DNA from: Acutalibacteraceae bacterium
GTDB lineage: Bacteria; Bacillota; Clostridia; Oscillospirales; Acutalibacteraceae
NCBI GenBank assembly: GCA_045542015.1
Contig: JAZQKF010000079.1
Span: 1,635 to 65,634, forward strand
Length of the DNA: 64,000 nt
Reading direction: 5' to 3'
Position numbers and translations under genes: made by a program
The notes under the pieces: model-generated
Database searches by the model: none
Told to the model about the DNA's origin: nothing
What the model saw: only the letters and a program-made list of their open reading frames with translations
Shown: piece by piece, positions 12,805 through 63,785 of the stretch
Numbering within the stretch: the first letter of the stretch is position 1
How the letters are laid out: every line of letters begins with the position of its first letter

Positions 12805-12839
12805 AAAAACACGGTGCGATTCTTCGCACCGTGTTTTTT
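12804..12839. terminator. bidirectional intrinsic terminator
   Basis: Hairpin CACGGTGCG...CGCACCGTG flanked by AAAAAAA and TTTTTT, between convergent araC-like and sigE. Confidence 0.8.
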
Positions 12840-13545: not shown

Positions 13546-13547
13546 TT

Positions 13548-14399: not shown

Positions 14400-14420
14400 A
14401 GTCGCCACCTCCACCCGCTC

Positions 14421-17224: not shown

Positions 17225-17257
17225 ATCAAGGCCACCCCTATTCGGGGTGGCCTTGAT
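17225..17257. terminator. bidirectional intrinsic terminator
   Basis: Hairpin ATCAAGGCCACCCC-TATTC-GGGGTGGCCTTGAT between convergent genes. Confidence 0.75.
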
Positions 17258-18156
17258 TATGCAGTAATCACTAAGGACTGTTTGCCTAATTGCCGATACT
17301 GTTTTTCAACAATCCATTTTGCGTATTTCTTAACAGTTCCGCGATACGGGTCGTTAAAGTAATAGTTGTTCTGATCATAGCCAATCAGCACCATACAATG
17401 CTCATTGGCCGGCCATTCATAGGTCGAACCGTCTTCCAGCGTCCATTTATCGGTAGGATAAGAGTCAAGCATACCGATGGTAACCCACGTTAATACGGGA
17501 ACATTCTTATCCACGTAGGTTTTACATAATTCTTCCAACGAGGTGCCGGTGGTGTTTTGCACGCGGTCACTGTTACCGAAATAATGAATCAGTGCCTTTT
17601 CAATCACCGGTGCCATACAACCGTAAGACTGGGTGGAACGAGGGTCGCCAAGGAAGTTTTCGTACGGATCCGGTCCATAATAGACGCCGTTTTTCCAGTA
17701 AAATTTACTGCTTTTACTCAAATGGTTGTCTATAAACTCATCCACCGACACCGACTCGCCCCAGTATTTCAGGGCCATCACCGCGCTGACCGACTCACAT
17801 CCGGTGGGGTATTTCGGCATCTGATGAATCAAAGGAACGCCGCTGATGCTGTAAGCATATGTTGCCGACGTAGGCATAGTGGACGGGGGAACGGTGCTGT
17901 GTTCCGTTCCTGCCGTGGTGCCGGTCGTGGTGATTGTCGTGGTGGTTGAGGTTTTTGAAGCGGTGGTTGTCTGCGGGCGCTGTGTCGGGAGCGGAACGTC
18001 GGACGTCGTTGTGCTGACGGACTCGGTGACATTGGTTTTTTCGGTGGTGGTTGTGGTTGCAGGCTTTGTCAAGGAATACGCGCAGCCGCATAACGTAGAC
18101 AGCCAAAGAAACACAACCAACGCTATCACCATCGGTCTCAAATTTATAAATCGCAT
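17257..18156 (-). CDS. secreted/lipoprotein C39-like (Peptidase_C39_2) cysteine peptidase with a Thr-rich linker
   Basis: Signal/lipobox LSTLCGC, a poly-T/S linker, then QMPKYPTGCESVS...EHCMVLIGYD (Cys/His papain-like pattern). ATG at 18156. Confidence 0.7.
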   Translation of the reverse strand: MRFINLRPMVIALVVFLWLSTLCGCAYSLTKPATTTTTEKTNVTESVSTTTSDVPLPTQRPQTTTASKTSTTTTITTTGTTAGTEHSTVPPSTMPTSATYAYSISGVPLIHQMPKYPTGCESVSAVMALKYWGESVSVDEFIDNHLSKSSKFYWKNGVYYGPDPYENFLGDPRSTQSYGCMAPVIEKALIHYFGNSDRVQNTTGTSLEELCKTYVDKNVPVLTWVTIGMLDSYPTDKWTLEDGSTYEWPANEHCMVLIGYDQNNYYFNDPYRGTVKKYAKWIVEKQYRQLGKQSLVITA

Positions 18157-18270
18157 TATGCTTCCGTCCCCTTTCACATATCCCGCCTTGTCCGTCTCAA
18201 CGACGACCTTTCCGGCAACAGTACACTCTCTGACCGAGCAACGGTTTCGTTGCTCGGTCTTTTTTGTAGT

Positions 18271-45400: not shown

Positions 45401-46275
45401 CAAGCGCCGGCCGTGATGTTCCAGTAGTAACTGGGAGAGGCCAGCTCGCTGGTGCCGCTGGCACCGGCATAGATGTGCACACGGGCAATACCGCCGGTGA
45501 GAGAGCCGTTGTAGTAGGACTCAACATCCAGGGTGTAATCGGTGTTAGCCTCCACGGTGATGGTCTGCTCAGCCACGGTGCTGTAACGGCTGGTGGTGGT
45601 AGCCTTCAGAGCGTAGTCGCCATTCAGAGCCTCAACCACACCACCGGACACAGTCCAACCATCGGCAGTGCCGTCGTTGAAATAACCATTGGCAACCAGG
45701 TTGCCGTCTGCTTCCTCATCGGGAGTGATGGTAACCTCGGGCTCATCGCCGGTGGGGATGGGACCGGTGAAGGTCACATCGTCGATGTAGCAGGAGCCGC
45801 CGCTGGCAATACCCTGAGCGAAGTTGAAGTTGATCGCCGTGTAACTGCCGGAGTTGAACGTGCAGGTCTTGGTGGTCCAAGCATCGGCAGTCGCGTCAGA
45901 AATATACAGAGCCGTAATCTGAGTGGTCGCAGTTTCTTCGAACACGTACATGCGATGCTGGGTGGTTGCCGCAGCGTCGGCACCCAATTTGATCTTAAAA
46001 GAAATGGTGTAATCGCTGTTAGGCACAACCGCCACAGTACGCTCAGCATACTTGCCATACTTGTTGGTGGCGGTACCCTTCAGAGAGTAGGAACCACTGG
46101 CAGCGTCCTCGGTGGTGACGGAGCCGTATTTCAGGGTCCAGTCAGTAGAACCATCCTCAAAGCCGCCGTTGGTCAGCAGGTCGCCATCCGCAGCAAACAC
46201 GCCCAGAGGCAACAGGGTGCACAGCATGGTCACGCAAGCAAGCACGGCCAATACTTTGCGCATTTTGATTTGCAT
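42472..46275 (-). CDS. 1267-aa secreted mosaic protein A: 3-4 CBM-like modules + EEP + CE2-like SGNH esterase + domain X
   Basis: Signal peptide. NGGFEDG/NGYFNDG/NGDFETG beta-sandwich starts. EEP module about 43990-44763 (IRMMTYNVLV...SDHNAVFADI). CE2-like module about 42991-43953 (IEFIGDSISTGFG, ALGTNDIA, WHPS). Domain X about 42475-42942, ending NDGVLEW. Confidence 0.85.
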   Translation of the reverse strand: MQIKMRKVLAVLACVTMLCTLLPLGVFAADGDLLTNGGFEDGSTDWTLKYGSVTTEDAASGSYSLKGTATNKYGKYAERTVAVVPNSDYTISFKIKLGADAAATTQHRMYVFEETATTQITALYISDATADAWTTKTCTFNSGSYTAINFNFAQGIASGGSCYIDDVTFTGPIPTGDEPEVTITPDEEADGNLVANGYFNDGTADGWTVSGGVVEALNGDYALKATTTSRYSTVAEQTITVEANTDYTLDVESYYNGSLTGGIARVHIYAGASGTSELASPSYYWNITAGAWDSHQLTFNSGENTQVRIVLQQHAAPTSSTAMDGNIYYDNFNLQKIVPAPEGNDTPSNDGYIINGDFETGDLTGWTVTSANVTWTEVANGNFSLQGTNTAKYGSFVKQTVTCEANTDYTITFKAKLAAAGGQPRFYIKDGAEAVTLNSSNYYFTGSTEWTTYQIAFNSGEYTSLVIYPAQGVTNGGDVYYDDIVMEKASSGYQGLYPETMTSGADIRMMTYNVLVGQDTANGGYSWGSAITGRPEKACAMINYYKPDVIALEEFSGEWYDYFVANMPDYAFGEMTSADTQNNGKLYTCIAYNVNTVRLLDTELMRMTKSRWGTQGMRYLNVAFLEVIATGEKFIACATHPDAGALEGTQDLNGDGTAAEGDGYWRQFQLEEAAEYAANLSATHMQPVIIGGDFNSGLHSGNTDATSYNKFVDAGFTDATAGRYIDHIFYNGMATHLYETTVADAAVSGASDHNAVFADIQFLDEYATPIKNAKDYIKTQGRTALKDGALWLDFSASGIEFSANCEGKVALNLNVEYLKQTDSYGGLYFTVLVDGVKVDRAECHITSTGNVELVLAENLTPGNHTFEVYRQTEHRGAEVGISSIVMNGSFNEKPADNRLYIEFIGDSISTGFGALGTSSDSDGGSPKWQDATAAYPYLTAKALGADFSDVAYSGIGAKYGYQDPNMQTFYPYQRYNYDSTTQYDFNARQPDVVVIALGTNDIANQTDAALRKVGYQEMLDLVRAKNPNSKIVWIYGMMKDDDNAMIASLIEENGGAAEGLYSLELVTNTAGAGWHPSAAGQQKFADDLVAFLNSDVLVKYVGDVEDDKYDVIDLNGTSRMEMTADKLGLAFRFKINANGIEVINETEAVLDNATIDAFDDGGSYKLLSMGAIVSNDPIYGLAGMTKEMADGRKVLDVNAKYLCDLEPDSAQFAVRITNIPLANEDTIIYARAYYTFEYEGRVITVYDDLQQANYINKYDSNDGVLEW

Positions 46276-49379: not shown

Positions 49380-49443
49380 CGTTCCTCCCAACATACAACG
49401 CATCGCAAGCATTGTGAGAAATGAGAAAAATTATCCACTATTT

Positions 49444-49544: not shown

Positions 49545-51566
49545 TCACCACTTCAAAGTGCCATCGTTAAACTGTGGCGCATCCCGATAGCAGGTACTGA
49601 TGATCTCGCCATACGTAATCACCCGCTGTCCGTCCCGTTCGAACACGTAGTACGGACGAGCATATACCTGCGCATCTGCCAAATGGACGGGAACATTCAC
49701 CACGCGGGCTGTAAAGCGAACACACTTGCCAGTCACGCCCACCAGGTAGCGTGCCTTCACGCGCACGGTGTTAGGGGACAGGTTCTCCACCGTCATACGG
49801 GCGGGATCCTCCCCCACCGCCGCATCGTTGCTTAACAGGGCGCCCATATCCACCAGCGTATACTCTCCGCCGTCACCGTAGGCGTCGACGGTGGCATTCT
49901 TGAGCAAACACCGATAATCGACAGTCATCTTGACGTTGGAGGCATTCAGCTGAAAGCGGAAGCCCAGGCCGCCGTACTTTTCGCTCATCTCCATACGGGA
50001 CACGCCCGCTCCGCTCAGCAGATCCCCTCTGCCTGTCGGAACGGGGCACAGCCCCTCCTCCAGCAAAAACGCCGCCAACTCGTCGGCAAAGGTCTGCTGA
50101 CCGACCAGGTCGGGGTGATACCCGCCGCCCGCCGTATTGCGGGTCAACCGACAGGCATAATAACCGGACGCCTCACCGCCAAATTCCTCCACGATATCCT
50201 CGATCATAGAGGAAACGCCGGTAGTCATCATACCGTGAATCCACACGATGGGAGCGTCGGGATTCTTGGCACGGACCAACCGCAGCATCTCCACCAAGCC
50301 GGCGCGAACAGACGCCGTATCGGGGCCCTTGGAATTATCGTTGGTGCCCAGCGCCAAGATCACCACGTCGGGCTGTACGGAAAAATCATAGGCGGCGGTC
50401 TTGTCGTAGTGATAGCGTTGAGCGGGATACACCTCCTGCATGGTGGTGGAGCTGTAGCCGTATTTACACCCCAAGCCCGACCAGGACACGTTGGACCAGT
50501 CGGCATTCAGCGCCCGTGCGGTCAAATAGGTGTACGCTCGGGTACCGTCAGACCACAGCGGGTTGCCGTTGCCCTTGGTGCTGTCGCCCAGATTGCCAAA
50601 GCCGCAGGAAATGGAATCGCCGATAAACTCGATACACACGTCTTTATCAGCGGGTCTGTCCAGCATCTCTCCGTCGTAGGACAGAGCACATACACCTACC
50701 TCACCGTAGGAGTGCTCGGTCTGTCGATAGATGGCAAAAGTATGCTTGCCGGAGGACAGCCCCTCTGCCAGATTCACCTTGGTTTCGCCCACAGAGGTAA
50801 TACGGCAATAATTCCGCGGCTGCGGAATACCGTCCACCACGATGGTGAAATACACGCCGCCCTCTGAGCCGGAGTTGGCGATCCGACGGGCGTTAAAGGT
50901 GGCGTACACATCCCCCTCGCAGTTCAGTTCAAATTCCATACCCGAAATGGAGAAATCCAGCATCAGCGTGCCGCCAACCATAGCGGTACGCCCCTGGGTT
51001 TTCACCTTATCCTTCAGGGTTTCCATCATCTTAAGATGGGGGTCGCCGTCATCGGCGCCCAGCACCACCTCGGTCAGGGTGACGTCGTCCAGATACATCT
51101 CGGTTGCCTGGTTATTACCCGCTCCCACCAGAGTGAAAAACACCGTGTCGCTCGTAGCTTCAAACTCCACGGAAAAGCGGGTCCATTCGGTTTTCGTGCC
51201 ATAAGTATAAGCCAGCTTAACACCCTTATCCGTGGTGCCGTCGCACAGCTGAATATTCACACCGTTGGACAGCGCCTTATACCACACGCTGAAGCGGTAG
51301 GTGGTGCCCACCTCCAGGCCGGTGACGGTCTGATTACCCAAGCCGCCCCAGCCGCCGTTGCCCACCACGTGCAGACCGTAGCTGCCGCTGCGGGCGGCGG
51401 TAGCATCCACCTGGGTGGACTGATACACCTGCCAGCCGTCGTTGCTGCCGCTCTCGAAATCGCCGTTGACAAACCGATTGACGGCGGCGGATGCTGTAGG
51501 AATGGTCGTCCACAGCAACAGCACGGCCATCAACACCGACAGAATACGCCGTTGTGTTCTTTTCAT
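49545..51566 (-). CDS. 673-aa secreted protein B: CBM-like + CE2-like SGNH esterase + domain X
   Basis: Signal peptide. NGDFESGSNDGW module. IEFIGDSISCGFG, ALGTNDNS and YHPD SGNH blocks. Domain X ends FNDGTLKW (49548-49571). Confidence 0.85.
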   Translation of the reverse strand: MKRTQRRILSVLMAVLLLWTTIPTASAAVNRFVNGDFESGSNDGWQVYQSTQVDATAARSGSYGLHVVGNGGWGGLGNQTVTGLEVGTTYRFSVWYKALSNGVNIQLCDGTTDKGVKLAYTYGTKTEWTRFSVEFEATSDTVFFTLVGAGNNQATEMYLDDVTLTEVVLGADDGDPHLKMMETLKDKVKTQGRTAMVGGTLMLDFSISGMEFELNCEGDVYATFNARRIANSGSEGGVYFTIVVDGIPQPRNYCRITSVGETKVNLAEGLSSGKHTFAIYRQTEHSYGEVGVCALSYDGEMLDRPADKDVCIEFIGDSISCGFGNLGDSTKGNGNPLWSDGTRAYTYLTARALNADWSNVSWSGLGCKYGYSSTTMQEVYPAQRYHYDKTAAYDFSVQPDVVILALGTNDNSKGPDTASVRAGLVEMLRLVRAKNPDAPIVWIHGMMTTGVSSMIEDIVEEFGGEASGYYACRLTRNTAGGGYHPDLVGQQTFADELAAFLLEEGLCPVPTGRGDLLSGAGVSRMEMSEKYGGLGFRFQLNASNVKMTVDYRCLLKNATVDAYGDGGEYTLVDMGALLSNDAAVGEDPARMTVENLSPNTVRVKARYLVGVTGKCVRFTARVVNVPVHLADAQVYARPYYVFERDGQRVITYGEIISTCYRDAPQFNDGTLKW

Positions 51567-51736: not shown

Positions 51737-54703
51737 TTACCACTCCAAAGCGCCGTCGTTGAACTCAAATTTGCCGTCGTAGTTGGCGCAGACGATCTCA
51801 TCGTACACCACTACCTGCTCGCCGGCCGCATTCTCGTAGATGTAGTAAGGACGAGCGTAGATGGCGGTAGCGGACTGCGACTCAGGAATGCGGATGATAC
51901 GCACGGCATACGTAGCGCCGTTTTCGTCGCACGCCATCAGATTCTCAGCGGATACCTTCTTAGTTCTGGTATTATCCGCATTGTCAATGATCAGCTTTCT
52001 CTCGCTCTGACCGACCAGCATATCGTTGGTCACCACGGCACCGAAGTCCACCAGCTTATATTCCTCGCCGTCGGACAGAGTCACGGTGGCGTCGGCGATA
52101 TCCCGCTTATAAGCAGTGCCCGCCTTGATATCGATGCCATTGGCGGCAATATTAAACTGGAACGCCAGACCGCAGCCGATGGTGGTATCCTCCATGCGGC
52201 TGGTCTCGCCGCCGGAAATCAGATCGTCGGACAGCACGGGCTCGTCGGGGATGTCGGGAGTGTCGGGAGTGTCGGGAGTGTCGGGAGTATTATTGCCCTC
52301 AGCCAGGCCGTTCTCCTGCAGGAAAGCCACCAGCTCGTCGGCAAACTTCTGCTGACCCGCCAGGTTGGGGTGAGCACCGCCGCCGGCGTTGTTCTGGGTG
52401 AGCTTGCAGGCATAGTAGCCGGCGTCGGCGCCGCCGAACTCGGCCACGATCTCCTCGATCATAGAAGAAACGCCGGTGGTCATCATACCGTGGATCCACA
52501 CGATGGGCGCGTTGGGATTCTTGGCGCGGACCAGCTGCAGCATCTCCACCAGACCCTCACGCTTCAAGGTGGCGTTGGACTGCATGGAGTTATCGTTGGT
52601 GCCCAGAGCCAGGACGATCACGTCGGGCTCCTTGGCAAAATCGTACTGAGTGGTCTTATCGTAGTTGTAGCGCTGGGCAGGATACACGTCCTGCATAGTG
52701 ATGGTACTATAGCCATACTTACAGCCCAGACCGGACCAGGAAACGGTGGACCAGTCGGCATTCAGCGCCTTGGAGGCGATGTAGGTGTAAGCCTGGGTGC
52801 CGTCGGACCAGAGCGGGTTGCCGTCGCCCTGGGAGCTGTTGCCCAGGTTTCCGAAGCCGCAGGAGATGGAGTCGCCGATGTACTCGATGTACAGATCCTT
52901 ATCGGCGGGCTTATCCAGCAGCTCACCGTCGAAGGACAGGGCACAAATACCCACCTCACCGTGAGAGTGCTCGGACTGACGGTAGATGGCAAAGGTGTGC
53001 TTGCCGGAGGACAGACCCTCTGCCAGCTTCACCTTGGTCTCGCCCACGGAGGAAATGCGGCAGTAGTCGCGGGCCTTGCTCACGCCGTCCACCACGATGG
53101 TGAAATACACACCGCCATCAGCGGCAGAGTTGGAGATCTTGCCGGCGTTGAAGGTAGCGTACACATCGCCGGCGCAATCCAGCTCGAACTCAATACCGGA
53201 CACGGTAAAGTCCAGCATCAGGGTGCCGCGCACCAGGGAGGTGCGACCCTGGGTCTTGATGTCGTCCATCAGGGTGTCGATCATTTTCAGGTTGGGGTCG
53301 TCGTCGTTGCCGCCCAGGACCACCTCGGTCAGGGTGACATCGTCCATATACATCTTCTCGGCCGTGCCGGTGCCGGAGCCAACGAGAGCAAAGCAAACGG
53401 TGCTAGTGGTAGCCTCAAACTCCACGGCGAACTCGGTCCACTGGGTGTTGCTGCCATAGATGTAAGCCAGCTTGGCGCCGGAGTTGTTGCTGCCCTCGCA
53501 CAGCTGAATGTTCACGCCGGCGGACAACGCCTTATACCACAGGCTGATGCGGTAAACCTTACCGACCTCCAGACTGTTGATGACCTGCTGACCCAAGCCT
53601 CCCCAGCCACCGTTGCCTTCAATGTACAGACCGTAGTTGCCGGTCTTAGCGGCAGTAGCATCCACCTTGGTGTTCTGATACAACTGCCAGCTGGAAGAAG
53701 AACCGGTCTCGAAGTTACCATTGACCACTAATCCGGTCTCGCCCAAAGCGGGCTCGTCGGGGGTGGCAGGCTCGCCGAACTCATTCAGGCAAACCAAAGA
53801 TAAATCATCAAAATAACCAGAAGCATCCGCTGCAGTACCCATCAGCGAAAAGATGATACTGGTCCGGTCACCAGTATTGAACTGCAGAGTGGTCTTACTC
53901 CAATCGGCGGAAAAAGCAATATTCTTCTGTTCTATGTTGACGGTGTCGTTACCGTCCTTGATCAATAAAGAGAAGTTATTAACATCTCTGGACCACAGAG
54001 TCGCCTCGTAATCAGTGTTGGGCTTCACATTGACAATCTGACGGAAGTGATTCCACTCGCCGCAACCGATATTCAAGCCGATGGAATCATTGTGACCGTG
54101 ACCATTTATCACAGCAGCATTGCAAGCACCCCACAAATTTTCCCAACCGGTGGTGCTACCAATTTCAAAGTCACCGTTTTCTAACAAGTTCGTACCTGTA
54201 GTAGTAGGAGCTTTCTCAGTGATCTTCACATAGTCGATGTAAAAAGTAGTACCACTAAGAGCATAGGTGCCGGTCTGGATGCAGACGATGGCTCCAGAGC
54301 TCACATCATCGGCGATGACAGTGAATTCATAATCCATCCACCCAAGGGACACTTCCAAATCTTGCTGAGCGGCGGTATGACCGGTCCAGCCATTGTTGAT
54401 CTTGAAGCTTAGTGTCTGCGGCAAATCCGCTTTAACACGCATAGACACTGTATATTCGGTGCCCGCCTGAATGGCATTGGCATAGGCATAAATATTAGCC
54501 CAATCATCAAGGGTGCCATACAGCACCGCAGTGCCATCCCTTACGGTAGCAGATTCGCTACGAAACAGGAAGCCGTCAGCATCAGCGTTGAAACTGGCAT
54601 CCATAATGACATCGCCGGGGGTGGCGAATACGCTCATCGGGATAACCGAGCACATCAACAATACAGCCAACACAACAGACAGTACTTTGTTAAACTTGCG
54701 CAT
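51737..54703 (-). CDS. 988-aa secreted protein C: 3 CBM-like + CE2-like SGNH esterase + (TPD)n linker + domain X
   Basis: Signal peptide. The CE2-like core is very similar to protein B. Domain X ends FNDGALEW (51740-51763). RBS AGGAGG. Confidence 0.85.
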   Translation of the reverse strand: MRKFNKVLSVVLAVLLMCSVIPMSVFATPGDVIMDASFNADADGFLFRSESATVRDGTAVLYGTLDDWANIYAYANAIQAGTEYTVSMRVKADLPQTLSFKINNGWTGHTAAQQDLEVSLGWMDYEFTVIADDVSSGAIVCIQTGTYALSGTTFYIDYVKITEKAPTTTGTNLLENGDFEIGSTTGWENLWGACNAAVINGHGHNDSIGLNIGCGEWNHFRQIVNVKPNTDYEATLWSRDVNNFSLLIKDGNDTVNIEQKNIAFSADWSKTTLQFNTGDRTSIIFSLMGTAADASGYFDDLSLVCLNEFGEPATPDEPALGETGLVVNGNFETGSSSSWQLYQNTKVDATAAKTGNYGLYIEGNGGWGGLGQQVINSLEVGKVYRISLWYKALSAGVNIQLCEGSNNSGAKLAYIYGSNTQWTEFAVEFEATTSTVCFALVGSGTGTAEKMYMDDVTLTEVVLGGNDDDPNLKMIDTLMDDIKTQGRTSLVRGTLMLDFTVSGIEFELDCAGDVYATFNAGKISNSAADGGVYFTIVVDGVSKARDYCRISSVGETKVKLAEGLSSGKHTFAIYRQSEHSHGEVGICALSFDGELLDKPADKDLYIEYIGDSISCGFGNLGNSSQGDGNPLWSDGTQAYTYIASKALNADWSTVSWSGLGCKYGYSTITMQDVYPAQRYNYDKTTQYDFAKEPDVIVLALGTNDNSMQSNATLKREGLVEMLQLVRAKNPNAPIVWIHGMMTTGVSSMIEEIVAEFGGADAGYYACKLTQNNAGGGAHPNLAGQQKFADELVAFLQENGLAEGNNTPDTPDTPDTPDIPDEPVLSDDLISGGETSRMEDTTIGCGLAFQFNIAANGIDIKAGTAYKRDIADATVTLSDGEEYKLVDFGAVVTNDMLVGQSERKLIIDNADNTRTKKVSAENLMACDENGATYAVRIIRIPESQSATAIYARPYYIYENAAGEQVVVYDEIVCANYDGKFEFNDGALEW
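52244..52288 (-). repeat. 9-bp tandem repeat (4 perfect + 1 imperfect) encoding the TPDTPDTPDTPDIPD linker
   Basis: GTCGGGAGT x4 at 52253-52288, preceded by GTCGGGGAT. In frame within protein C. Confidence 0.9.
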
Positions 54704-56546: not shown

Positions 56547-56840
56547 AGCGTCTACCTCCAAATTCAAACTTTGTTATAGCACCACTTTTCCGTCAACCGT
56601 GCGGGTTTTCGTGCTGTAAAGCTGTTTTGCTTTACAGTCATTTTTCGACCGTTGGATAACGGATTTCTCCTCTTGCCGTATAGCATAGCAAATAATGTCG
56701 ATAATTTCAACCATTATTTGCAAAAAACGGCAGAATTTTATCGTTTGCGAAATAACAATTTATTGACTCTATTGTGCATTCATACGAAATTTCGCAGGTG
56801 GATTTGTGGAAAATTTTCGCAGAAATCCTATCAATATGGT

Positions 56841-56869
56841 TTGACAATTTTTTCTTGTTATTATATAAT
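56841..56869 (+). promoter_or_regulatory. consensus sigma-A promoter for the P1 / protein E unit
   Basis: TTGACA (56841-56846), 17 nt spacer, TATAAT (56864-56869), in a ~430-bp AT-rich spacer. Confidence 0.65.
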
Positions 56870-57000
56870 GGACGAGTACTCAAGTTGCGGGATTGGGCTA
56901 GCTATACCCATTTCGCTTTGTTATCAGCCGTGATTTCACAGCTTGAGATGCTCAGGCTTTGGAATATCCAAGGTACTTTTCGGGAAAGGAGGAACCCACT

Positions 57001-57114
57001 ATGAAAAAGTATGTGACCCCTGAGATGAAGGCTCTGGCCTTTGTCGCCGAGGAGGCTGTTGCCGCTCCCCTGGAGGGCTCCAAGACCTTCAACGACGGTG
57101 AGCTGGAGTGGTAA
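57001..57114 (+). CDS. unannotated 37-aa peptide P1 (MKKYVTPEMKALAFVAEEAVAAPLEGSKTFNDGELEW)
   Basis: ATG 7 nt after GAAAGGAGGAA. Paralog at 60873 shares the N-terminal MKxYxxPEMKxxxFxxEE and the C-terminal NDxExxxW. Below the 60-aa ORF-track cutoff. Confidence 0.6.
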   Translation: MKKYVTPEMKALAFVAEEAVAAPLEGSKTFNDGELEW

Positions 57115-57210
57115 TGCGGATGGCATAACCTCTTCCCCACCAACCCCCGGGCGGATGCCCACAAATCATTCGGGCAACTGCCCAAAAATCTATTAGGAGG
57201 AAATTTGCAA

Positions 57211-60200
57211 ATGAACATGCGTAAAATCATTGCCGTGCTGTCTGCTGTTCTGATGCTGTGCGCCATCATCCCGATGGGTGCTGTATCTGTTTACGCTGCT
57301 GAAGAAGTCGCTTATCTCGCCGATTTCGAGAATGGCAGCATCGGCGGCTGGAAAAACGATTCCGGCAATTTGTCCGTCGTTTCTACCAGCGAACTGCCCA
57401 CGGCTAACGCCGCTTGTGGCAGCTACGTTTTGAAGAAGGTTCAGCCCGTCGGCGAATACTCTTTCAACGAGGATCGTTCCGGCTTTGCCGTTGAACCCAA
57501 CACTGATTACACCGTGAGTGTGGACGTTCTGACCACCTCCAACAACTGGCCCATCCAGGCTTTCGTTTCCACCGGTACCTGGATTACCGGTCAGCTGGGC
57601 TCCGTCACTGTTAAGTGCACGAGCAATCAGTGGACCACCCTGACTTTCAACTTTAACAGCGGTGAGAACACCAAGCTGTATTGTTCTGTGAAGTCTCAGT
57701 GGGAAAACACTACTCTGTACATTGATAATTTCAAGGTCGCTAAGCTGGATCCCTATCGTGAGCTGGTCAAGAATGGCGGCTTCGAGGACGGCACCACCTC
57801 CGGTTGGAGCATCCACGAGACCGTTACCGTTGAGGCTGGCGCTGCCCACGATGGCAACTACGGCGCCCATCTGAAGGATCGTGGCACCTGGGGCGGTATC
57901 ATGAACCAGACCTTTGCCGTTGAGGCCGGCAAGACCTATGAGATCTCCTTCTGGATCAAGGTCAACCAGTTCGGTATCAACCTGCAGATCAAGGACGATA
58001 ATGGCTCTCTGGCTACCGGTACTTGGTATGACTACAACAGCCATTCCGAGTGGACTCTGAAGACCTACACCGTCGTCCCCACCACCAACAACCTGATCCT
58101 GAACTTCTGCGGTGGCGGTGGCGAGACCCCCGACGCTACCAAGGAAACCGACACCTACATCGATAGCCTGTCCATCAAGCGCGTTAAGGAGCCCTCTTTC
58201 GACGGCTACATTTACAACGGTGACTTCGAGACCGGTAAGCTGGGCTTCGGCACCGGCCAGGTTTCCACCACGGGCGCTTGGTACAACCTGTGGGGCAGCA
58301 CTGCTCACGAGCTGGTTGCCGGCTACAACGGCGACTACGCTCTGAAGGGTACCGCTTCCGGCAACTACAACATCACCTATCAGAACGTTGCGGTTGAGCC
58401 CAACACTGATTACATCATCGCTTACTACAGCAAGGATTCTTCTAACTCCGCTCTATGGGTTAAGAATGCCGGCGGTAACGGTGACATCGGTAGCCAGAGC
58501 TTCAACAGCGGCTCCGAGTGGGCTATGCAGGCCTATACCTTCAACTCCGGCTCCAACAGCACTGTCTGGGTCGGTCTGATGGGTATCTCCGCCGGCGGCA
58601 CCTACACCGTGGATGACATCAAGATGGTCAAGGCTGTTGCCCCCTCCAACGACGGTTACATTTACAACGGTAACTTCGAGTCCGGTAAGAAGGAGAGCTT
58701 CGAGCTGAGCCAGCAGACCGTCGTTTCTATGGATGCTGCTAAGGACGGCAACTATGGTGCTGAGCTGAAGGGCAATGGCGGCTGGGGCGGCATGCTGGGC
58801 TACACCTTCGCCGTTGAGGCCGGCGCTACCTATGAGCTGTCCTTCGAGGCCAAGGCTGTGAGCAACGGTGCTAACGTCGCCGTGCTGGCTGACACCTGGC
58901 AGGGTGCCAAGCTGAAGACCGGTTGGATCGGCGGCAGCGAGTGGAAGACCTACACTCTTGAGTTTGTTGCTACCACCAACCAGTGCTATCTGAACATCAA
59001 CGGCGCCGGCAACGGCACTGCCGAGCATATCTATGTGGATAATGTCGGCGTTGTGAAGACCAAGGACGCTCACGTCTGCGAGTTTGTGGGCGAGGTCACC
59101 GAGGAGCCCACCTGCGAGCTGACCGGTACCATGACCTACACCTGCTCCGGCTGTGGCGATAGCTACACCGAGGAGATCCCCGCCTATCACAACGGCAACC
59201 TGACCTACGTGGCCGCTGTCGAGCCCATCGATTGCGCCACCCCCGGTCACATCGAGTACTACACCTGCCCCTGCTGTAACGAGTACTTCACCGATGCCAA
59301 CGCCAGCGAGTACATCAACCCCTGGTTCATCAACATCACCGTGGACTGCGTGCGTCCCGAGGGCGTGGCTGACTGCGCCGACTGGATCTGCGGCGTCTGC
59401 GGCAACGAGAACTACGGCAACGGCGAACACGACACCGGCGTTCCTGCCTGCCAGGACGGTCACTGCTCCAAGTGCGATCAGGACGTCGCCGGCTACGGTC
59501 ACCAGAACTACGACGGCCCTGCCTGCCTGCCCGGCAACTGCTATTACTGCGGCGAGGCCATGGAGCCTGTTGCTCACGAGAACGGCGCCTGGGCTCCCTG
59601 CCTGGAGGGCGAGTGTGCCTATGGCTGCGGTCTGACCTATCCCGCCACCGCTGATCACGTGGACGAGGATGCCGACGACTACTGCGACGTCTGCTATAAC
59701 CACCTGAATCACGACGTGGATCCCTGCGTCGGCGGCGAGTGCTCCATCTGCTGGACCTACATTGAGGGTGCTCACACCTACGACAACGATTTCGACACCG
59801 ACTGCAACGTCTGCGGCGAGATCCGCGACGTGGAGCTGCCCATCGCCAAGGTTGGCGTCTCCGCTTCTGAGGATGTCCGCGGCGTGGCTGCTAAGTTCGT
59901 TCTGACTGTGGATGGCATGGGCATCGACGAGACCACCGCTATCTACGACAACGCCACCGTGAACGGCTACAAGCTGATCGGTATGGGCGCTAAGGCTACT
60001 AACGGCGTGAGCACCGTAGACATTCCCTGCGTATATCTGTGCGACGACGATGTGAGCACTTCTGCTCAGTACGCCATCCGCATTAAGAACATCCCCGTGG
60101 GCAAGGAGGACGTGGAGATCACCTTCACTCCCTACTTCACCATCGAGATCGACGACGAGCCGGTCACCATCTACGGTGAGGAAGTTGTCGCTTCCTACAA

Positions 60201-60216
60201 CTCCGTGATAGGCTAA
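57211..60216 (+). CDS. ~1001-aa secreted protein E: 4-5 CBM-like modules + Cys-rich CX4CX2C..H array + truncated domain X
   Basis: ATG at 57211 (MNMRKIIAVLSAVLMLCAI...) 10 nt after AGGAGG. NGGFEDGTTSGW / NGDFETG / NGNFESG module starts. 28 Cys (my count) in about 255 aa (about 59068-59835). Domain X about 59835-60213. Confidence 0.85.
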   Translation: MNMRKIIAVLSAVLMLCAIIPMGAVSVYAAEEVAYLADFENGSIGGWKNDSGNLSVVSTSELPTANAACGSYVLKKVQPVGEYSFNEDRSGFAVEPNTDYTVSVDVLTTSNNWPIQAFVSTGTWITGQLGSVTVKCTSNQWTTLTFNFNSGENTKLYCSVKSQWENTTLYIDNFKVAKLDPYRELVKNGGFEDGTTSGWSIHETVTVEAGAAHDGNYGAHLKDRGTWGGIMNQTFAVEAGKTYEISFWIKVNQFGINLQIKDDNGSLATGTWYDYNSHSEWTLKTYTVVPTTNNLILNFCGGGGETPDATKETDTYIDSLSIKRVKEPSFDGYIYNGDFETGKLGFGTGQVSTTGAWYNLWGSTAHELVAGYNGDYALKGTASGNYNITYQNVAVEPNTDYIIAYYSKDSSNSALWVKNAGGNGDIGSQSFNSGSEWAMQAYTFNSGSNSTVWVGLMGISAGGTYTVDDIKMVKAVAPSNDGYIYNGNFESGKKESFELSQQTVVSMDAAKDGNYGAELKGNGGWGGMLGYTFAVEAGATYELSFEAKAVSNGANVAVLADTWQGAKLKTGWIGGSEWKTYTLEFVATTNQCYLNINGAGNGTAEHIYVDNVGVVKTKDAHVCEFVGEVTEEPTCELTGTMTYTCSGCGDSYTEEIPAYHNGNLTYVAAVEPIDCATPGHIEYYTCPCCNEYFTDANASEYINPWFINITVDCVRPEGVADCADWICGVCGNENYGNGEHDTGVPACQDGHCSKCDQDVAGYGHQNYDGPACLPGNCYYCGEAMEPVAHENGAWAPCLEGECAYGCGLTYPATADHVDEDADDYCDVCYNHLNHDVDPCVGGECSICWTYIEGAHTYDNDFDTDCNVCGEIRDVELPIAKVGVSASEDVRGVAAKFVLTVDGMGIDETTAIYDNATVNGYKLIGMGAKATNGVSTVDIPCVYLCDDDVSTSAQYAIRIKNIPVGKEDVEITFTPYFTIEIDDEPVTIYGEEVVASYNSVIG

Positions 60217-60761: not shown

Positions 60762-60790
60762 TTGACACCTGTGCGCGTGTATATTATAAT
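60762..60790 (+). promoter_or_regulatory. consensus sigma-A promoter for the P2 / protein F unit
   Basis: TTGACA (60762-60767), 17 nt spacer, TATAAT (60785-60790). Confidence 0.65.
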
Positions 60791-60872: not shown

Positions 60873-61010
60873 ATGAAAAACTATTTCGCCCCTGAGATGA
60901 AGGTCGTATCCTTCCTGCCCGAGGAGAACATGGCTGCCGCTGCCAAATCCGGCGAAGGCACTACCGGCGGCTCCAATCTCTACAACGACGCCGAGTTCGG
61001 CAGCTGGTAA
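60873..61010 (+). CDS. unannotated 45-aa peptide P2 (MKNYFAPEMKVVSFLPEENMAAAAKSGEGTTGGSNLYNDAEFGSW)
   Basis: ATG 7 nt after GAAAGGAGGAA. Paralog of P1. Below the ORF-track cutoff. Confidence 0.6.
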   Translation: MKNYFAPEMKVVSFLPEENMAAAAKSGEGTTGGSNLYNDAEFGSW

Positions 61011-61204: not shown

Positions 61205-63739
61205 ATGAAAATGCGTAAAATTGTGGCCATTGTGGCGGCGGCGCTGATGCTGTTCAGCATTATGCCCTTCTCCGCGATGGCTGACAGCAGTGTTACTCTG
61301 ACTTTCGATGACACTGCGAAACGCACCGTTTTCACTACTGAGTGCCAGCAGTGGGAGGAGAACGGCATCGTTCTCACCAACAACAAGGGAAGTTCCACTT
61401 CCGACGTTGCTGATTATGCGAGCCCTGCCCGTTTCTACAAGAACTCTCAGATCATCGTCTATTATCCCACCACGATGAACACCGTCATTTTCCACTGCAA
61501 CACTGCTGCCTACGCCACTGCTTTGGCGAACAGCATCGGCGCGGATCTGGTGATTGTTGAGGATAAGGATGTTTACTATCATCCTCAGACCACCGAGTAT
61601 GCCTTTGAGTTGACCGGCGGTCAGGTGCGTATGGATGGTATCACTGTTCAGTGTTCTGATACCATCTGTGAGCACGAGTATGAGTATGAGTGCTCTGAAT
61701 ACTGCAAACTGTGTGGTGTACGCACCCGTCCTGCCGCCCAGTGCGTCAACAACGGTCCCGCCTGCACTGACGGTGTGTGCCAGTATTGCGGCGTTGCCGT
61801 TGCCGGTTTGGGCCACGCCTACGACAACGACTACGATGCCGACTGCAACTACTGCGGCGAGGTTCGTGAGGTTGAAGAGGCTCCCGACGGTTACGTTCTG
61901 ATGACCTCTCTGAGCATTGGTGACACCGTCACCTTGGTAGCGGAAAGCGCCAGCAAGGAGTTGGGCGGTATCTCTACCACCAGCACCAAGTATGGCCTGG
62001 GCGTAGCCTATGTCGGTGCGCCCGTCGGTGCTTACCCCCTGACCGTAGAGGCCGGTTATAACGACAGCACCTATTCCTTCAAAACCGGTGATGGCAAATA
62101 TCTGTACTGGACCTCCGGTAACAGCTTAAACGTCACCACCACCAAGGATGCAAAATCTTCTTGGACTGTCACTTTTGAAGGCAATAACGTGATGATCGTG
62201 AACGCTTCGGATTCTACTCGCAAAATCCGTTGGAATACGAGTAGTCCCCGTTTTGCGACCTACACCTCTGCACAGACGGATATTCAGCTTTACGGCATCT
62301 CTGCCGGTGGCGAGTCCGGATGTGCACACGAGTACGACAACGACTGTGACACCGATTGCAACCTGTGCGGTGAAGTCCGCGTTGCCGGACATGCATGGGA
62401 TAGCTGTGCCGATACCGACTGCAACAAGGGCTGCGGTTATATCCGCGAAGCCAGTGACTGCGTGTACACCAGTGCTTACGACACCTCTTGTTCTGAGTGC
62501 GGCGCTACTCGTGCTGTGGAGCTGCCCGCTGCTGACAGCGAGCTGACCATCCCGGAGGCTAACGACGTTGCTATGCTGGGCGGCAGTGCCTACACCAGTG
62601 GCAAATACTATGTCACCGGTGTGGTCGAAAGCATTGCCAACACCACCTACGGTAACCTGTATATTCAGGACGAGAACGGCAACAAGCTGTATGTCTACGG
62701 TGTATACGGTCCCGACGGAACCACTCGTTACGATTCTCTGGGCGACCTGCAACCTGCTGTGGGCGACGAGATCACTCTGTATGGTCCTCTGGGTACCTAC
62801 AGCGGCGCCGGCCAGATGAAGAACGGCAGTCTGGTCGTGGAGACCACCGTCTGCGACGAGTGCACCTACAGCGGCGACTACGATCCCACCTGTAACGTAT
62901 GCTACACCGAGCGTGAGATCACTCTGCCCGAGGCCGACACTGAGTTGACCTTTGAGGAGATCGAGGAAATCGCTACCGGTCGCGATCACAACGACTACAC
63001 CGATAGCAAGTACTATGTGATCGGTACGATTACCGAGGTGTACGGTGCGGAGTATGGCAACATGTACATCGAGGATGAGGCCGGCAACTCCCTCACCATC
63101 TACGGCACCTATTCTGCCGATGGCTCCACCCGCTACGATGCTATGGAGACCAAGCCTGTGGTCGGCGACACAGTCAAGCTGTACGGCATCATCGGTAACT
63201 ATAACGGTACCGTTCAGATGAAAAACGCCTGGGTGATTGAGCATACCGCTCACACCTGTGTGTCCGATAGCGAGTACGAGTGCACCGATGGTGTCTGCAC
63301 CATCTGCGGCGCTGCCGTTGCCGGCATCGGCCACAGCTACTTCTATCCCTGCGACGTGGTGTGCCAGATCTGCTATCAGGAGACCAACCCCGACGCTGCC
63401 CACACCATCGTGGCTGTGGAGGCTGTTGAAGCTACCTGCTCCCAGAACGGTAACATCGCTTACTGGTACTGCTCCGATTGCGGCTATGTTTGGGCTGACG
63501 AGGCTCTGACTCAGCAGACCAACCGGATGAACATCGTTGTTCCCGCTACCGGCGAGCACACCTACGACGACGACTACGACGCTGACTGTAACGTCTGCGG
63601 CGAGACCCGCGAGGTTCCCGAGATACCTGTTGAGATCCTCTACGGCGATGCCGACGGTGACGGCGAGGTCACTCTGACCGACGCAGCTCTGCTGGGTCAG
63701 TGGCTGGCCGGTTATGACGTTACTCTGGGTCCGGTGTGA
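61205..63739 (+). CDS. ~844-aa secreted protein F: beta-sandwich modules + Cys-rich motifs + 2 OB-fold-like repeats + single dockerin-like repeat
   Basis: ATG at 61205 (MKMRKIVAIVAAALMLFSIMPFSAMA) after AGGAGG; the track ORF start at 61037 is an in-frame non-coding extension. HxYDNDxDxDCNxCGExR occurs three times. The C-terminus reads GDADGDGEVTLTDAALLGQWLAG. Confidence 0.85.
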   Translation: MKMRKIVAIVAAALMLFSIMPFSAMADSSVTLTFDDTAKRTVFTTECQQWEENGIVLTNNKGSSTSDVADYASPARFYKNSQIIVYYPTTMNTVIFHCNTAAYATALANSIGADLVIVEDKDVYYHPQTTEYAFELTGGQVRMDGITVQCSDTICEHEYEYECSEYCKLCGVRTRPAAQCVNNGPACTDGVCQYCGVAVAGLGHAYDNDYDADCNYCGEVREVEEAPDGYVLMTSLSIGDTVTLVAESASKELGGISTTSTKYGLGVAYVGAPVGAYPLTVEAGYNDSTYSFKTGDGKYLYWTSGNSLNVTTTKDAKSSWTVTFEGNNVMIVNASDSTRKIRWNTSSPRFATYTSAQTDIQLYGISAGGESGCAHEYDNDCDTDCNLCGEVRVAGHAWDSCADTDCNKGCGYIREASDCVYTSAYDTSCSECGATRAVELPAADSELTIPEANDVAMLGGSAYTSGKYYVTGVVESIANTTYGNLYIQDENGNKLYVYGVYGPDGTTRYDSLGDLQPAVGDEITLYGPLGTYSGAGQMKNGSLVVETTVCDECTYSGDYDPTCNVCYTEREITLPEADTELTFEEIEEIATGRDHNDYTDSKYYVIGTITEVYGAEYGNMYIEDEAGNSLTIYGTYSADGSTRYDAMETKPVVGDTVKLYGIIGNYNGTVQMKNAWVIEHTAHTCVSDSEYECTDGVCTICGAAVAGIGHSYFYPCDVVCQICYQETNPDAAHTIVAVEAVEATCSQNGNIAYWYCSDCGYVWADEALTQQTNRMNIVVPATGEHTYDDDYDADCNVCGETREVPEIPVEILYGDADGDGEVTLTDAALLGQWLAGYDVTLGPV

Positions 63740-63785
63740 ATATATAACGACACCGAGCTCAATTGGTAATTCCTAATCACCCCGA

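Follow-up and report, generated by a model that had tools for sequence, protein, structure and literature searches.

A conserved 37-residue peptide of a gut Clostridia bacterium ends in the tail of large secreted plant-fibre enzymes

Why would a gut bacterium end a peptide of only 37 residues with the same short tail that it places on many of its large secreted plant-fibre enzymes? This question is raised by a small open reading frame, P1, in a 64,000-nucleotide stretch of DNA from an Acutalibacteraceae bacterium (assembly GCA_045542015.1, contig JAZQKF010000079.1, positions 1,635 to 65,634 of the forward strand), hereafter called the window. A preliminary description, made from the sequence alone, had pointed out that P1 lies behind a perfect promoter and a ribosome-binding site, is probably co-transcribed with the 1001-aa secreted protein E, is acidic and devoid of a signal peptide or transmembrane helix, and has last eight residues near-identical to the extreme C-termini of three nearby proteins. 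This observation proved correct: all of its sequence statements hold, the sole adjustment being that the ribosome-binding site ends 6 and not 7 nt before the ATG. Its interpretation was borne out only in part: of the three readings it offered, a donor or mimic of a terminal strand of a domain termed domain X is not supported, a precursor whose active part is the C-terminus fits best but is unproven, and a regulatory leader peptide for protein E agrees with co-transcription but not with the arrangement of the whole family. A second paralogue, P2, had been overlooked, and has the same layout ahead of a dockerin protein. Neither the peptide family nor the tail matches any described family, and their function was not identified.

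The features of the locus are collected in the table below. P1 encodes MKKYVTPEMKALAFVAEEAVAAPLEGSKTFNDGELEW and terminates with TAA at 57112-57114. Its net charge is -3 and it has no hydrophobic core, since its best 11-residue Kyte-Doolittle mean is 1.5, against 3.0 for the signal peptide of protein E.

Coordinates of the promoters, genes and C-terminal tags in the window, with the observations attached to each
Position	Strand	Feature	Observation
56841..56869	+	Perfect sigma-70-type promoter (TTGACA-17-TATAAT) that drives P1 and, by read-through, protein E	Score 12/12; the same perfect or near-perfect promoter lies 60-150 nt upstream of 24 of 39 family copies
56878..56955	+	Structured 5' UTR; a conserved long-range stem (CTCAAGTTG ... 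CAGCTTGAG) encloses a GGG/CCC hairpin	Starts a few nt after the predicted transcript start
56984..56994	+	Ribosome-binding site GAAAGGAGGAA, 6 nt before the ATG	GAAAGGAG(G) is present before almost every family copy
57001..57114	+	P1, 37 aa; leader (residues 1-22, MKKYVTPEMKALAFVAEEAVAA), short linker (PLE) and conserved core (GSKTFNDGELEW)	
57115..57210	+	P1-E spacer without terminator or promoter, so the two genes share one transcript	The same holds in 30 of 32 related loci
57211..60216	+	Protein E, 1001 aa, secreted; stereotyped signal peptide, three CBM_4_9 domains, a Cys-rich region and domain X at the C-terminus without the tail	
60762..60790	+	Second perfect TTGACA-17-TATAAT promoter	82 nt upstream of P2
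60873..61010	+	P2, 45-aa paralogue (MKNYFAPEMKVVSFLPEENMAAAAKSGEGTTGGSNLYNDAEFGSW)	Same leader, longer linker and a type-2 core (ND-A-E-F-G-x-W)
61205..63739	+	Cys-rich secreted dockerin protein downstream of P2	Ends ...DVTLGPV, followed by TGA
63737..63769	+	In-frame TGA followed by nine codons encoding the tag (IYNDTELNW) and then TAA; candidate read-through extension	Layout recurs in loci L021 and L028; orthologues in L001, L002, L005 and L042 encode linker plus tag without a stop
51737..51763	-	C-terminal tag FNDGALEW plus stop of the 988-aa CE2/GDSL esterase (51737..54703)	Left disordered and outside domain X by AlphaFold2
49545..49571	-	C-terminal tag FNDGTLKW plus stop of the 673-aa CE2/GDSL esterase (49545..51566)	
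42472..42498	-	C-terminal tag SNDGVLEW plus stop of the 1267-aa esterase/phosphatase protein (42472..46275)	

Is P1 a gene at all? Conservation of the reading frame and its dN/dS had been named in advance among the checks to be made, and both speak for a genuine gene. Over 25 distinct DNA copies the frame is conserved under strong purifying selection, with a dN/dS of 0.195 overall and 0.033 for codons 28-37, while synonymous sites are near saturation (pS 0.70). The exact peptide occurs on at least 23 metagenome contigs, with 36 close relatives and 72 representative clusters at E up to 0.001, of which 70 are small ORFs of 35-90 aa. The family is confined to Acutalibacteraceae metagenome-assembled genomes, with 1-5 copies per genome (33 copies in 11 genomes). 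Likewise, the possibility that the resemblance to the enzyme tails would vanish in orthologues, which had also been named beforehand, was not realized, as all but one of 39 copies of the small ORF end in the motif ND-x-x-[LFIV]-x(1,2)-W-stop. Nor is the resemblance due to chance: in the window plus 26 genome loci, the same motif ends 18 of 71 large secreted-type ORFs (signal peptide and/or domain X) and 0 of 272 other ORFs of at least 250 aa. A chance ORF or a remnant of the 3' end of an esterase gene, for which only the small size and the lack of any database family could be invoked, is refuted by the selection on the frame, the number of copies and clusters, and the conserved promoter and ribosome-binding site.

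The peptides of this family are built from a conserved N-terminal leader (MKKYxxPE[ML]xxLxF), a linker varying from about 3 to 20 residues and a conserved C-terminus ([FY]ND-x-E-[LF]-x(1,2)-W), with invariant M1, Y4, P7 and N31. Searches of curated families gave no match: P1 returned no family in Pfam (E up to 0.01) or in NCBIfam (E up to 1), searches with P2 gave nothing either, related leader-type small ORFs returned no family in NCBIfam and only one insignificant Pfam hit (E = 0.05) at E up to 10, and Rfam returned nothing for 56500-57300. Searches of the literature for the motif, for dockerin read-through and for small proteins of Acutalibacteraceae found nothing relevant. A word-indexed homology search with a distant leader-type small ORF returned 3 unnamed proteins. 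Using a degenerate DNA pattern for the leader on metagenome contigs, the same leader was found to head other acidic small ORFs with unrelated C-termini, which suggests a portable recognition handle. An AlphaFold2 model of P1 alone was uninformative, the peptide being predicted disordered (pLDDT 64), as expected of a motif-bearing peptide that folds on a partner.

The tail of the enzymes behaves as an independent module. It follows either domain X or, through Pro/Ala-rich linkers, a dockerin. AlphaFold2 builds domain X as a complete, confident beta-sandwich (pLDDT above 90), while the tail (residues 158-166) has a pLDDT below 50 and no secondary structure, and is thus not predicted to be a strand of this domain. 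A Foldseek comparison of domain X with the PDB gave only weak generic beta-sandwich hits (ApaG, CBM21, C2), with no E-value below 0.001, and a word-indexed homology search with domain X plus tail returned only 5 proteins, too few to survey tails. A sequence search of the PDB with the Cys/His-containing C-terminal region of the 912-aa neighbour gave no significant hit. In three genomes the tag lies behind an in-frame TGA; a global recoding of this codon was ruled out, because TGA ends 9 of 34 genes of the window.

Do these small ORFs always precede large Cys-rich secreted proteins, a check that had been suggested from the outset? Every close copy lies 43-697 nt upstream of a large secreted protein on the same strand. 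However, divergent members of the family depart from this arrangement. At locus L046 (such labels denote the related loci compared with the window), the peptide gene has its own promoter and a strong terminator, and the large gene there has a separate promoter. In L050, L053 and L051, the peptide gene lies 4-40 nt downstream of a gene, and in L050 and L053 it is the last gene before a terminator. The family's function therefore cannot be purely cis-regulatory.

The reading that we prefer, though tentatively and with less than even confidence, is that P1 is a precursor-type peptide, translated and predicted to be highly expressed, with two functional parts: a leader, with Tyr4 and Pro7 in Y-x-x-P-x-[M/L]-x-x-L-x-F, and a core (about residues 26-37) that is a free copy of a short C-terminal tag, x-N-D-x-x-[L/F]-x(1,2)-W-COOH, which this lineage also fuses to the ends of many Sec-secreted carbohydrate-active enzymes. 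In this view, the leader would be a handle for a processing or export factor encoded elsewhere in the genome, and the core, probably released near the conserved Gly-Ser, would bind in trans to the same unknown partner that reads the tag on the enzymes. Production of the peptide would thereby be coupled to production of the tagged or associated enzymes, as a signal, a competitor or a regulator of enzyme retention. The analysis itself establishes that the gene is real and under selection, that the leader-linker-core architecture exists, that P1 is co-transcribed with a large secreted protein from a consensus promoter, that the tag is a modular motif, unstructured in the model, restricted to secreted proteins, and that the family acts in trans insofar as a purely cis role fails; leader recognition, cleavage, export, and the existence and identity of a tag reader are inferences, drawn without expression or peptide data. 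Several observations weigh against this reading. No peptidase, ABC exporter, radical-SAM enzyme, RRE protein or lasso B/C gene was found by Pfam scans of all large ORFs of the window, in the Pfam tables of neighbours within +/-10 kb of 19 metagenome loci (L001-L019), or among the recurrent neighbours of 29 loci in an all-against-all clustering, in which only the large secreted proteins, AraC regulators, DUF4886 and housekeeping genes recur, whereas precursor genes of known RiPPs normally sit next to their enzymes. The peptide has no recognisable export signal, so that its meeting with extracellular tags is hypothetical, no tag-binding partner has been identified, and the putative Gly-Ser cleavage site is common but not universal, with variants such as LPSN and LMSN.

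Other explanations were weighed against the same data, and each appears unlikely. P1 could be a cis-acting leader ORF whose translation, perhaps with slow termination at ...NDGELEW-stop, controls or protects the downstream mRNA for protein E by attenuation, by a 5' ribosome roadblock against exonucleases or by prevention of premature termination, the peptide having no function after release. Its position as the first cistron behind a consensus promoter and a structured 5' UTR, the absence of a terminator or promoter before the large gene in most related loci, and a conservation that is strongest next to the stop codon all agree with this view; ribosome pausing at the conserved residues was not measured. 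On the other hand, the arrangements in L046, L050, L053 and L051 (in the latter the peptide gene sits 4 nt after a stop codon) contradict it, the distance to the downstream gene is variable with no conserved alternative structure, the invariant extreme N-terminus (Y4, P7) is not explained by an exit-tunnel arrest motif, and the same motif ends long enzymes. About as improbable is a tag supplied in trans, in which the peptide would bind a neighbouring secreted protein that lacks the tail, or complete its domain X, as a split version of the fused enzymes akin to donor-strand complementation. Indeed, in the divergent members L051, L053 and L049 the peptide gene starts 4-16 nt after the stop codon of a tail-less protein that ends in domain X, which suggests translational coupling, protein E and many other partners end in domain X without a tail, and tail-less domain X proteins stop exactly where the linker to the tail begins in fused ones (...SYNG-stop against ...SYNGKLSENDGELEW-stop). 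Nevertheless, the model of domain X is complete without the tail, adjacent large proteins carry their own tail as often (11/36) as secreted proteins in general (21/71), P2-type peptides share the same leader yet pair with dockerin proteins that have no domain X, and the partners are exported unfolded through Sec while the peptide has no export signal.

A slightly less likely alternative is that P1 acts as a cytoplasmic decoy or regulator, a cytoplasmic factor such as a protease adaptor, chaperone or transcription regulator reading the tag on pre-enzymes not yet exported, and the abundant free peptide titrating or informing that factor to give feedback between enzyme synthesis and secretion. 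The lack of an export signal, the very high predicted expression coupled to the enzyme genes, and a subgroup that is transcribed divergently from an AraC-family regulator and lacks the consensus promoter would fit, and C-terminal motifs are the usual form of degrons and adaptor tags. Yet the conserved leader has no role under this model, no candidate reader has been identified, and tags added through a leaky TGA or placed after dockerins point to an extracellular function. Most doubtful among these is that P1 is the precursor of a conventional modified natural product, for example a small lasso-like lariat with a Gly26-Asp32 ring made by enzymes encoded elsewhere, whose resemblance to the enzyme tails would be incidental. 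A Gly lies 6 residues before the invariant Asp in most members, giving a ring of 7, and the paralogues within a genome carry core variants; however, no B, C or RRE genes lie near any of about 50 copies, the 5-6-residue tail is very short for a threaded lasso, and the motif shared with 18 or more secreted proteins is far beyond chance.

How does P1 compare with known systems? Among the closest are lasso-peptide precursors of Firmicutes, such as paeninodin PadeA, and their RRE-bound leaders. Both are acidic small ORFs of about 40 aa without a Sec signal, which begin with MKK(x)Y-x-x-P-x-L-x-x-L; in P1 and most members of its family, though not in all, a C-terminal core with a Gly followed by an Asp 6-8 residues later resembles that of lasso precursors. 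P1 possesses the Y-x-x-P-x-L motif of lasso leaders (PMC10368454), Y4 and P7 being invariant across 48 diverse members and position 9 being usually M, L or I (occasionally another residue), and aligns with MKKQYSKPSLEVLDV..., which the literature lists as the precursor of the lasso peptide paeninodin (PMC11594732) rather than as a ranthipeptide precursor. By contrast, the motif of lasso leaders stands at a fixed distance from the core (-17 to -12) with Thr (rarely Ile/Val) at -2, whereas Y4 lies 22 residues before G26 in P1 and 30 or more in P2 and others, the linker length varies by about 17 residues, and residue -2 relative to G26 is Leu in P1. As for a core that starts with Gly/Ala/Ser/Cys and has Asp/Glu at position 7-9, G26...D32 gives position 7 in P1 and in most members but variants such as LPSNIFND and LMSNMFND lack a suitable first residue, which leaves this criterion without a decision either way. 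B1/B2/C/D genes are absent nearby, and no lasso system shows its core motif at the C-terminus of large secreted proteins. P1 also fails to fit the double-glycine leader peptides, which have a leader ending in GG, GA or GS and an adjacent C39-ABC transporter: G26-S27 is nearly invariant in close relatives but absent in several members, the consensus hydrophobic positions -4, -7 and -12 fit poorly on inspection, and the only C39-like protein of the window (17257..18177) is 39 kb away and is not fused to an ABC transporter.

Enterococcal sex-pheromone and inhibitor peptides (prgQ/iCF10 type) and other Gram-positive pro-peptide signals (PapR, ComX, ComS) share with P1 a very small ORF at the head of a long operon behind a strong promoter, an active part in the last 7-10 residues that resembles a sequence carried by unrelated secreted proteins, and sometimes a divergently transcribed regulator (AraC in L011 and L019). 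However, those peptides are hydrophobic or carry Sec-type signals and have known receptors (PrgX, PlcR, ComP, ComR) encoded next to them, while P1 is acidic, lacks the N-terminal signal peptide of the Phr, PapR and NprX type, and has neither an adjacent receptor nor a TPR regulator nearby, and the shared sequence is a C-terminal tail instead of a signal peptide. C-terminal sorting or anchoring modules of Gram-positive secreted proteins (LPXTG/sortase, dockerin-cohesin) and the C-terminal Y-x-F motif of outer-membrane proteins, read by the DegS PDZ domain, are likewise short motifs at the extreme C-terminus shared by many otherwise different secreted proteins, and a free carboxylate and an aromatic last residue are probably part of the recognition. 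In contrast, the tagged proteins end at the Trp of the motif, with no transmembrane segment or basic tail as in sortase signals and no match to an NCBIfam sorting-domain model even at E up to 1; the tag is only 8-9 residues long, coexists with dockerins on the same protein, is duplicated on free cytoplasmically synthesised peptides, and has no known reader. Regulatory leader peptides (TnaC, ErmCL, SecM-type arrest peptides) also combine a short ORF upstream of the controlled gene on one transcript with the highest conservation next to the stop codon, but members of the present family also occur as independent or terminal genes, their N-terminus is as invariant as their C-terminus, and no alternative RNA structures link translation to downstream expression.

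A bolder reading, not excluded by these data but rather unlikely, is that this lineage has a previously undescribed protein-tagging and recognition system, in which the tag marks a subset of secreted fibre-degrading enzymes, in some genes only on the fraction of molecules whose ribosomes read through a leaky UGA, free peptides carrying the same tag behind a lasso-like leader are encoded in the same operons and tune, signal or compete for the tag's reader, and the reader is a still unidentified third part. Together these would amount to a new mode of enzyme display or sensing alongside cohesin-dockerin. If the findings hold, they add a well-supported small-protein family, missed by gene callers and ORF tracks, with several copies per genome, predicted to be highly expressed, in ruminant-gut and other animal-gut fibre degraders. 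They also expose a new short C-terminal tag on secreted carbohydrate-active enzymes, independent of dockerins and sortase signals, which would change how enzyme display in non-cellulosomal and cellulosomal Clostridia is understood if it directs anchoring, assembly or sensing. The occurrence of one motif on free peptides and on enzymes, and of tags behind in-frame UGA codons, gives a directly testable case of a peptide ligand that mimics a protein tag and of programmed read-through in bacteria.

The long-range stem in the 5' UTR of P1 is itself conserved. In an alignment of 8 loci, RNAalifold keeps the 8-bp outer stem in 8/8 sequences, mostly through G-U/G-C changes. The consensus promoter, structured 5' UTR, small ORF and stereotyped signal peptide also look like a natural high-expression secretion cassette.

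The ORF opened by the ATG at 57001 contains 37 codons, ends in TAA and encodes MKKYVTPEMKALAFVAEEAVAAPLEGSKTFNDGELEW (P1), as the preliminary description had stated. The motif GAAAGGAGGAA lies 6 nt before the ATG, a TTGACA-17-TATAAT promoter scoring 12/12 is found further upstream, and no terminator is present on the + strand before the gene coding for protein E, the large secreted protein encoded downstream. The 5′ UTR of P1 also carries a conserved 8-bp long-range stem (CTCAAGYTG/CAGCTTGRG) that starts at the predicted 5′ end of the transcript, encloses a GGG/CCC hairpin and is kept in 8 of 8 loci, mostly through wobble changes. This structure gives no match in Rfam and could be an mRNA stabiliser or a regulatory element. 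Three proteins encoded on the minus strand, which bear signal peptides, CBM_4_9 domains and CE2/GDSL esterase domains, end in FNDGALEW-stop, FNDGTLKW-stop and SNDGVLEW-stop. P1 itself has a net charge of -3 and no hydrophobic core. The observation made from the sequence alone was confirmed, and it could be extended as follows.

Positions of the features discussed, in the window or in related loci (designated L plus a number)
Location	Position	Strand	Feature
Window	12838-14414	-	SpoIIGA and a sigma-E-like sigma factor
Window	46190-46275	-	Stereotyped signal peptide of a large secreted protein
Window	46674-49412	-	912-aa secreted protein located between the tagged esterases
Window	54620-54703	-	Stereotyped signal peptide of a large secreted protein
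Window	56841-56869		Promoter upstream of P1
Window	56878-56955	+	Conserved stem in the P1 5′ UTR
Window	56984-56994		GAAAGGAGGAA
Window	57001-57114		P1 ORF (TAA at 57112-57114)
Window	57211		ATG of the gene for protein E
Window	57211-57290		Stereotyped signal peptide of a large secreted protein
Window	58900-59900		Cys-rich region of protein E
Window	60190-60216		End of a tail-less protein whose last domain is domain X
Window	60762-60790		Promoter of P2
Window	60873-61010		P2 ORF
Window	61205-61285		Stereotyped signal peptide of a large secreted protein
Window	61800-63600		Cys-rich region of the dockerin protein
Window	63737-63739		In-frame TGA of the dockerin protein
Window	63737-63769	+	In-frame TGA, tag codons and TAA
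L021	13320-13355		In-frame TGA, tag codons and TAA
L028	9769-9804		In-frame TGA, tag codons and TAA
L011	8930-9853	-	AraC-family regulator and divergently transcribed peptide subgroup
L019	4638-5486	-	AraC-family regulator and divergently transcribed peptide subgroup
L061	6862-6999		Small ORF with the shared leader and an unrelated C-terminus
L063	1182-1349	-	Small ORF with the shared leader and an unrelated C-terminus

P1 is a real gene. The exact 37-mer is called as a gene on at least 23 metagenome contigs with the same gene order, and a word-indexed search found 36 close relatives. An exhaustive HMMER scan of 1.84 billion representative proteins found 72 clusters, 70 of which are small ORFs of 35-90 aa, mostly 35-50 aa. 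The other two hits are very long proteins, one of which was inspected and found to be a repeat-protein artefact. Across 25 distinct DNA copies, dN/dS is 0.195 overall and 0.033 for codons 28-37, where synonymous differences are near saturation (pS 0.70). Loss of the reading frame in relatives had been put forward in the preliminary description as an outcome that would overturn the claim, and the comparison shows instead that the frame is conserved. Moreover, the window holds a paralogue that had been overlooked, P2, which encodes MKNYFAPEMKVVSFLPEENMAAAAKSGEGTTGGSNLYNDAEFGSW. P2 has its own perfect TTGACA-17-TATAAT promoter and the same ribosome-binding site as P1, and lies 194 nt upstream of the gene for a Cys-rich secreted dockerin protein.

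A scan of one genome per species found 26 loci in 11 metagenome-assembled genomes, all of which are labelled Acutalibacteraceae, Oscillospiraceae, Ruminococcus or Clostridia. Where a source is named, the genomes come from goat and sheep guts. Each genome has 1-5 copies, for a total of 33. Each of the 38 copies in these close relatives with enough downstream sequence lies 43-697 nt upstream, on the same strand, of a large secreted protein, while the 39th copy (locus L045) is cut off by the end of its contig. These large proteins share a stereotyped signal peptide, M(N)MRKIIAVLAAVLMLC..., and indeed non-orthologous secreted proteins in about 35 loci carry this unusually constant sequence, M(N)MRKI(I/V)A(V/I)LAAVLMLC(A/S)..P. 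Together with the consensus promoter and the small ORF, it looks like a reused expression-and-secretion cassette, or a signal peptide under special constraint. Protein E and the dockerin protein also carry long Cys-rich regions with repeated units of the type H-x-Y-D-x-D-x-D-x-D-C-N-x-C-G-E-x-R, amounting to 36-39 Cys per protein. No Pfam family matches these regions, which are shared by many of the large proteins encoded downstream of the peptides.

Of the 39 copies, 24 have a perfect 12/12 promoter located 60-150 nt upstream, and nearly all have GAAAGGAG(G). On the other hand, one peptide subgroup (MKSYLSPQIT...; L011, L019 and L034-L038) is transcribed divergently from an AraC-family regulator, lacks the consensus promoter and precedes a 1580-aa protein with many CBM_4_9 domains and a metallophosphatase domain, which suggests substrate-inducible rather than constitutive expression. 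In 30 of 32 loci, the spacer to the large gene has neither a terminator nor a good promoter. In the window and its close relatives, P1 is therefore the first cistron of the enzyme operon.

Alignments show that the peptide is composed of three parts. The conserved leader, M-K-K-(x)-Y-x-x-P-E-[M/L]-x-x-L-x-F-x-x-E-E-x-[I/V]-A, in which Y4 and P7 are invariant, is followed by a linker whose length varies by about 17 residues and then by a conserved core, usually (G)-S-[N/K]-x-[F/Y/H]-N-D-x-E-[L/F]-x(1,2)-W, in which N31 is invariant and D32 and W37 are nearly so. A few members carry 1-4 extra residues after the Trp, and a third subtype ends in ...G-Q-[V/L/I]-N-G instead. AlphaFold2 predicts no stable structure for P1 alone (pLDDT 64).

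The C-terminal tail is a modular tag of secreted proteins. In the window plus 26 genome loci, the motif ends 18 of 71 large secreted-type ORFs (signal peptide and/or domain X, a domain that many of these proteins carry) and none of 272 other ORFs of at least 250 aa. Of these 18 occurrences, 15 follow domain X and three follow a dockerin through Pro/Ala-rich linkers, e.g., ...DVTLGPAEGPAEDAPLFNDGELGGW-stop. AlphaFold2 models domain X plus tail as a confident and complete beta-sandwich (pLDDT above 90), whereas tail residues 158-166 fall below pLDDT 50 and have no secondary structure, and Foldseek gives only weak generic beta-sandwich matches. The tail is therefore not the last strand of domain X. 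Large proteins adjacent to the peptide carry their own tag as often (11/36, counting the cases in which a TGA precedes the tag) as secreted proteins in general (21/71), and the peptide is not preferentially paired with tail-less partners. Tail-less proteins whose last domain is domain X (L022, L024-L026, L031, L039, L041-L043, L050, L051, L053 and one in the window) almost always end in Gly or Gly-Glu (...SYNG-stop, ...EIAG-stop, ...SVIG-stop, ...MIGE-stop), and they stop exactly where the linker to the tag starts in the tagged paralogues. The third peptide subtype likewise ends in ...NG. The 912-aa secreted protein encoded between the tagged esterases has domain X at its N-terminus instead, followed by a Pro/Thr linker and a C-terminal region of roughly 400 aa with Cys...His motifs (YYGTVCSTTCAYAL ... 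GQGHVAMITG) reminiscent of papain/NlpC-P60/transglutaminase-like enzymes, although no Pfam hit and no significant PDB sequence hit were obtained.

In some genes the tag lies behind a stop codon. The dockerin protein of the window ends in ...DVTLGPV, and an in-frame TGA is followed by IYNDTELNW and TAA. The same layout, with a nine- or ten-codon tag followed by TAA, occurs in two other genomes, at L021 (...GPQG-stop-LFNDCVLGGW-stop) and L028 (...GPV-stop-LYNDGFLGGW-stop), and in all three cases the TGA is followed by A or C. Orthologues in sister strains (L001, L002, L005 and L042) have sense codons at this position and encode linker plus tag without a stop. TGA is an ordinary stop in 9 of 34 genes of the window, so there is no global recoding. 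Retention of the tag motif behind a stop in at least two independent lineages suggests leaky read-through that tags a fraction of the molecules; these sites are candidates for programmed UGA read-through, which is suggested but not proven by the present data.

The family acts in trans, as judged from the layouts of its divergent members. In L046, a divergent member has its own promoter and a strong intrinsic terminator, and the following large gene has a separate promoter. In L051, L053, L049 and L050, the peptide gene starts 4-40 nt after the stop codon of a tail-less protein that ends in domain X, and in L050 and L053 a terminator follows it. A purely cis-regulatory leader peptide cannot explain these layouts.

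The leader fits the Y-x-x-P-x-L motif of lasso-peptide leaders (PMC10368454) and resembles the paeninodin precursor MKKQYSKPSLEVLDVHQTM/AGPG... (PMC11594732), and in most members a Gly lies 6 residues before the invariant Asp. However, the other defining features of lasso-peptide precursors are lacking, since the distance from motif to core is variable, there is no Thr at -2, and no B, C or RRE genes were found near about 50 copies. A degenerate DNA pattern for the leader retrieved the same N-terminus (MKKYxxPE[LM]xxhxF) on other acidic small ORFs of 45-55 aa with unrelated C-termini (L056, L058, L059, L061 and L063), some of them next to large surface proteins in other contigs. In L061 and L063, they lie just downstream of large surface proteins with InlB-type B-repeats, and in L061 a prepilin-type gene is nearby. 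None of these small ORFs matches Pfam or NCBIfam, and the leader looks like a portable handle used by a wider, undescribed and unannotated set of small ORFs. The tails of the enzymes lack the membrane segment of sortase-type signals and match no NCBIfam sorting model. Two functional analogies can be drawn. On the one hand, several Gram-positive peptide signals have their active part at the C-terminus (prgQ/iCF10, PapR, ComX). On the other hand, shared C-terminal motifs can be read by a dedicated partner, such as the Y-x-F of outer-membrane proteins read by DegS, or dockerin read by cohesin. Neither combines a free peptide and protein tags that carry the same motif.

The interpretations offered in the preliminary description are only partly supported: the donation of a strand to domain X is rejected, the leader-peptide reading holds only for transcription, and the precursor reading fits best. 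Among the explanations considered, the most likely, although still tentative, is that P1 is a leader-core precursor peptide, whose leader would be recognised by a factor encoded elsewhere and whose C-terminal 10-12 residues would engage, in trans, the same unknown partner that reads the tag on the enzymes. In this view, co-transcription would tie the level of the peptide to enzyme production. The analysis shows the reality of the gene, its pattern of selection and architecture, its co-transcription, its independence from cis position, and the modular and unstructured nature of the tag together with its restriction to secreted proteins, whereas processing, export and the existence of a reader are inferred. 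This reading is chiefly weakened by the lack of any export signal or nearby processing gene, and by the absence of expression data. An expression leader acting in cis and a tag supplied in trans to the neighbouring protein both seem unlikely, and to the same extent, a cytoplasmic decoy or regulator is slightly less likely still, and a conventional RiPP unrelated to the tags is more doubtful again. An artefact can be all but dismissed. Precursor-type small peptides are already known, but this peptide family, the tag and the TGA-separated tags are not described in the libraries or papers that could be searched. There is a fair chance, though less than even, that the whole arrangement is a new tag-and-ligand system. 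As ordinary context, the presence of SpoIIGA and a sigma-E-like sigma factor shows that the organism is a spore-former.
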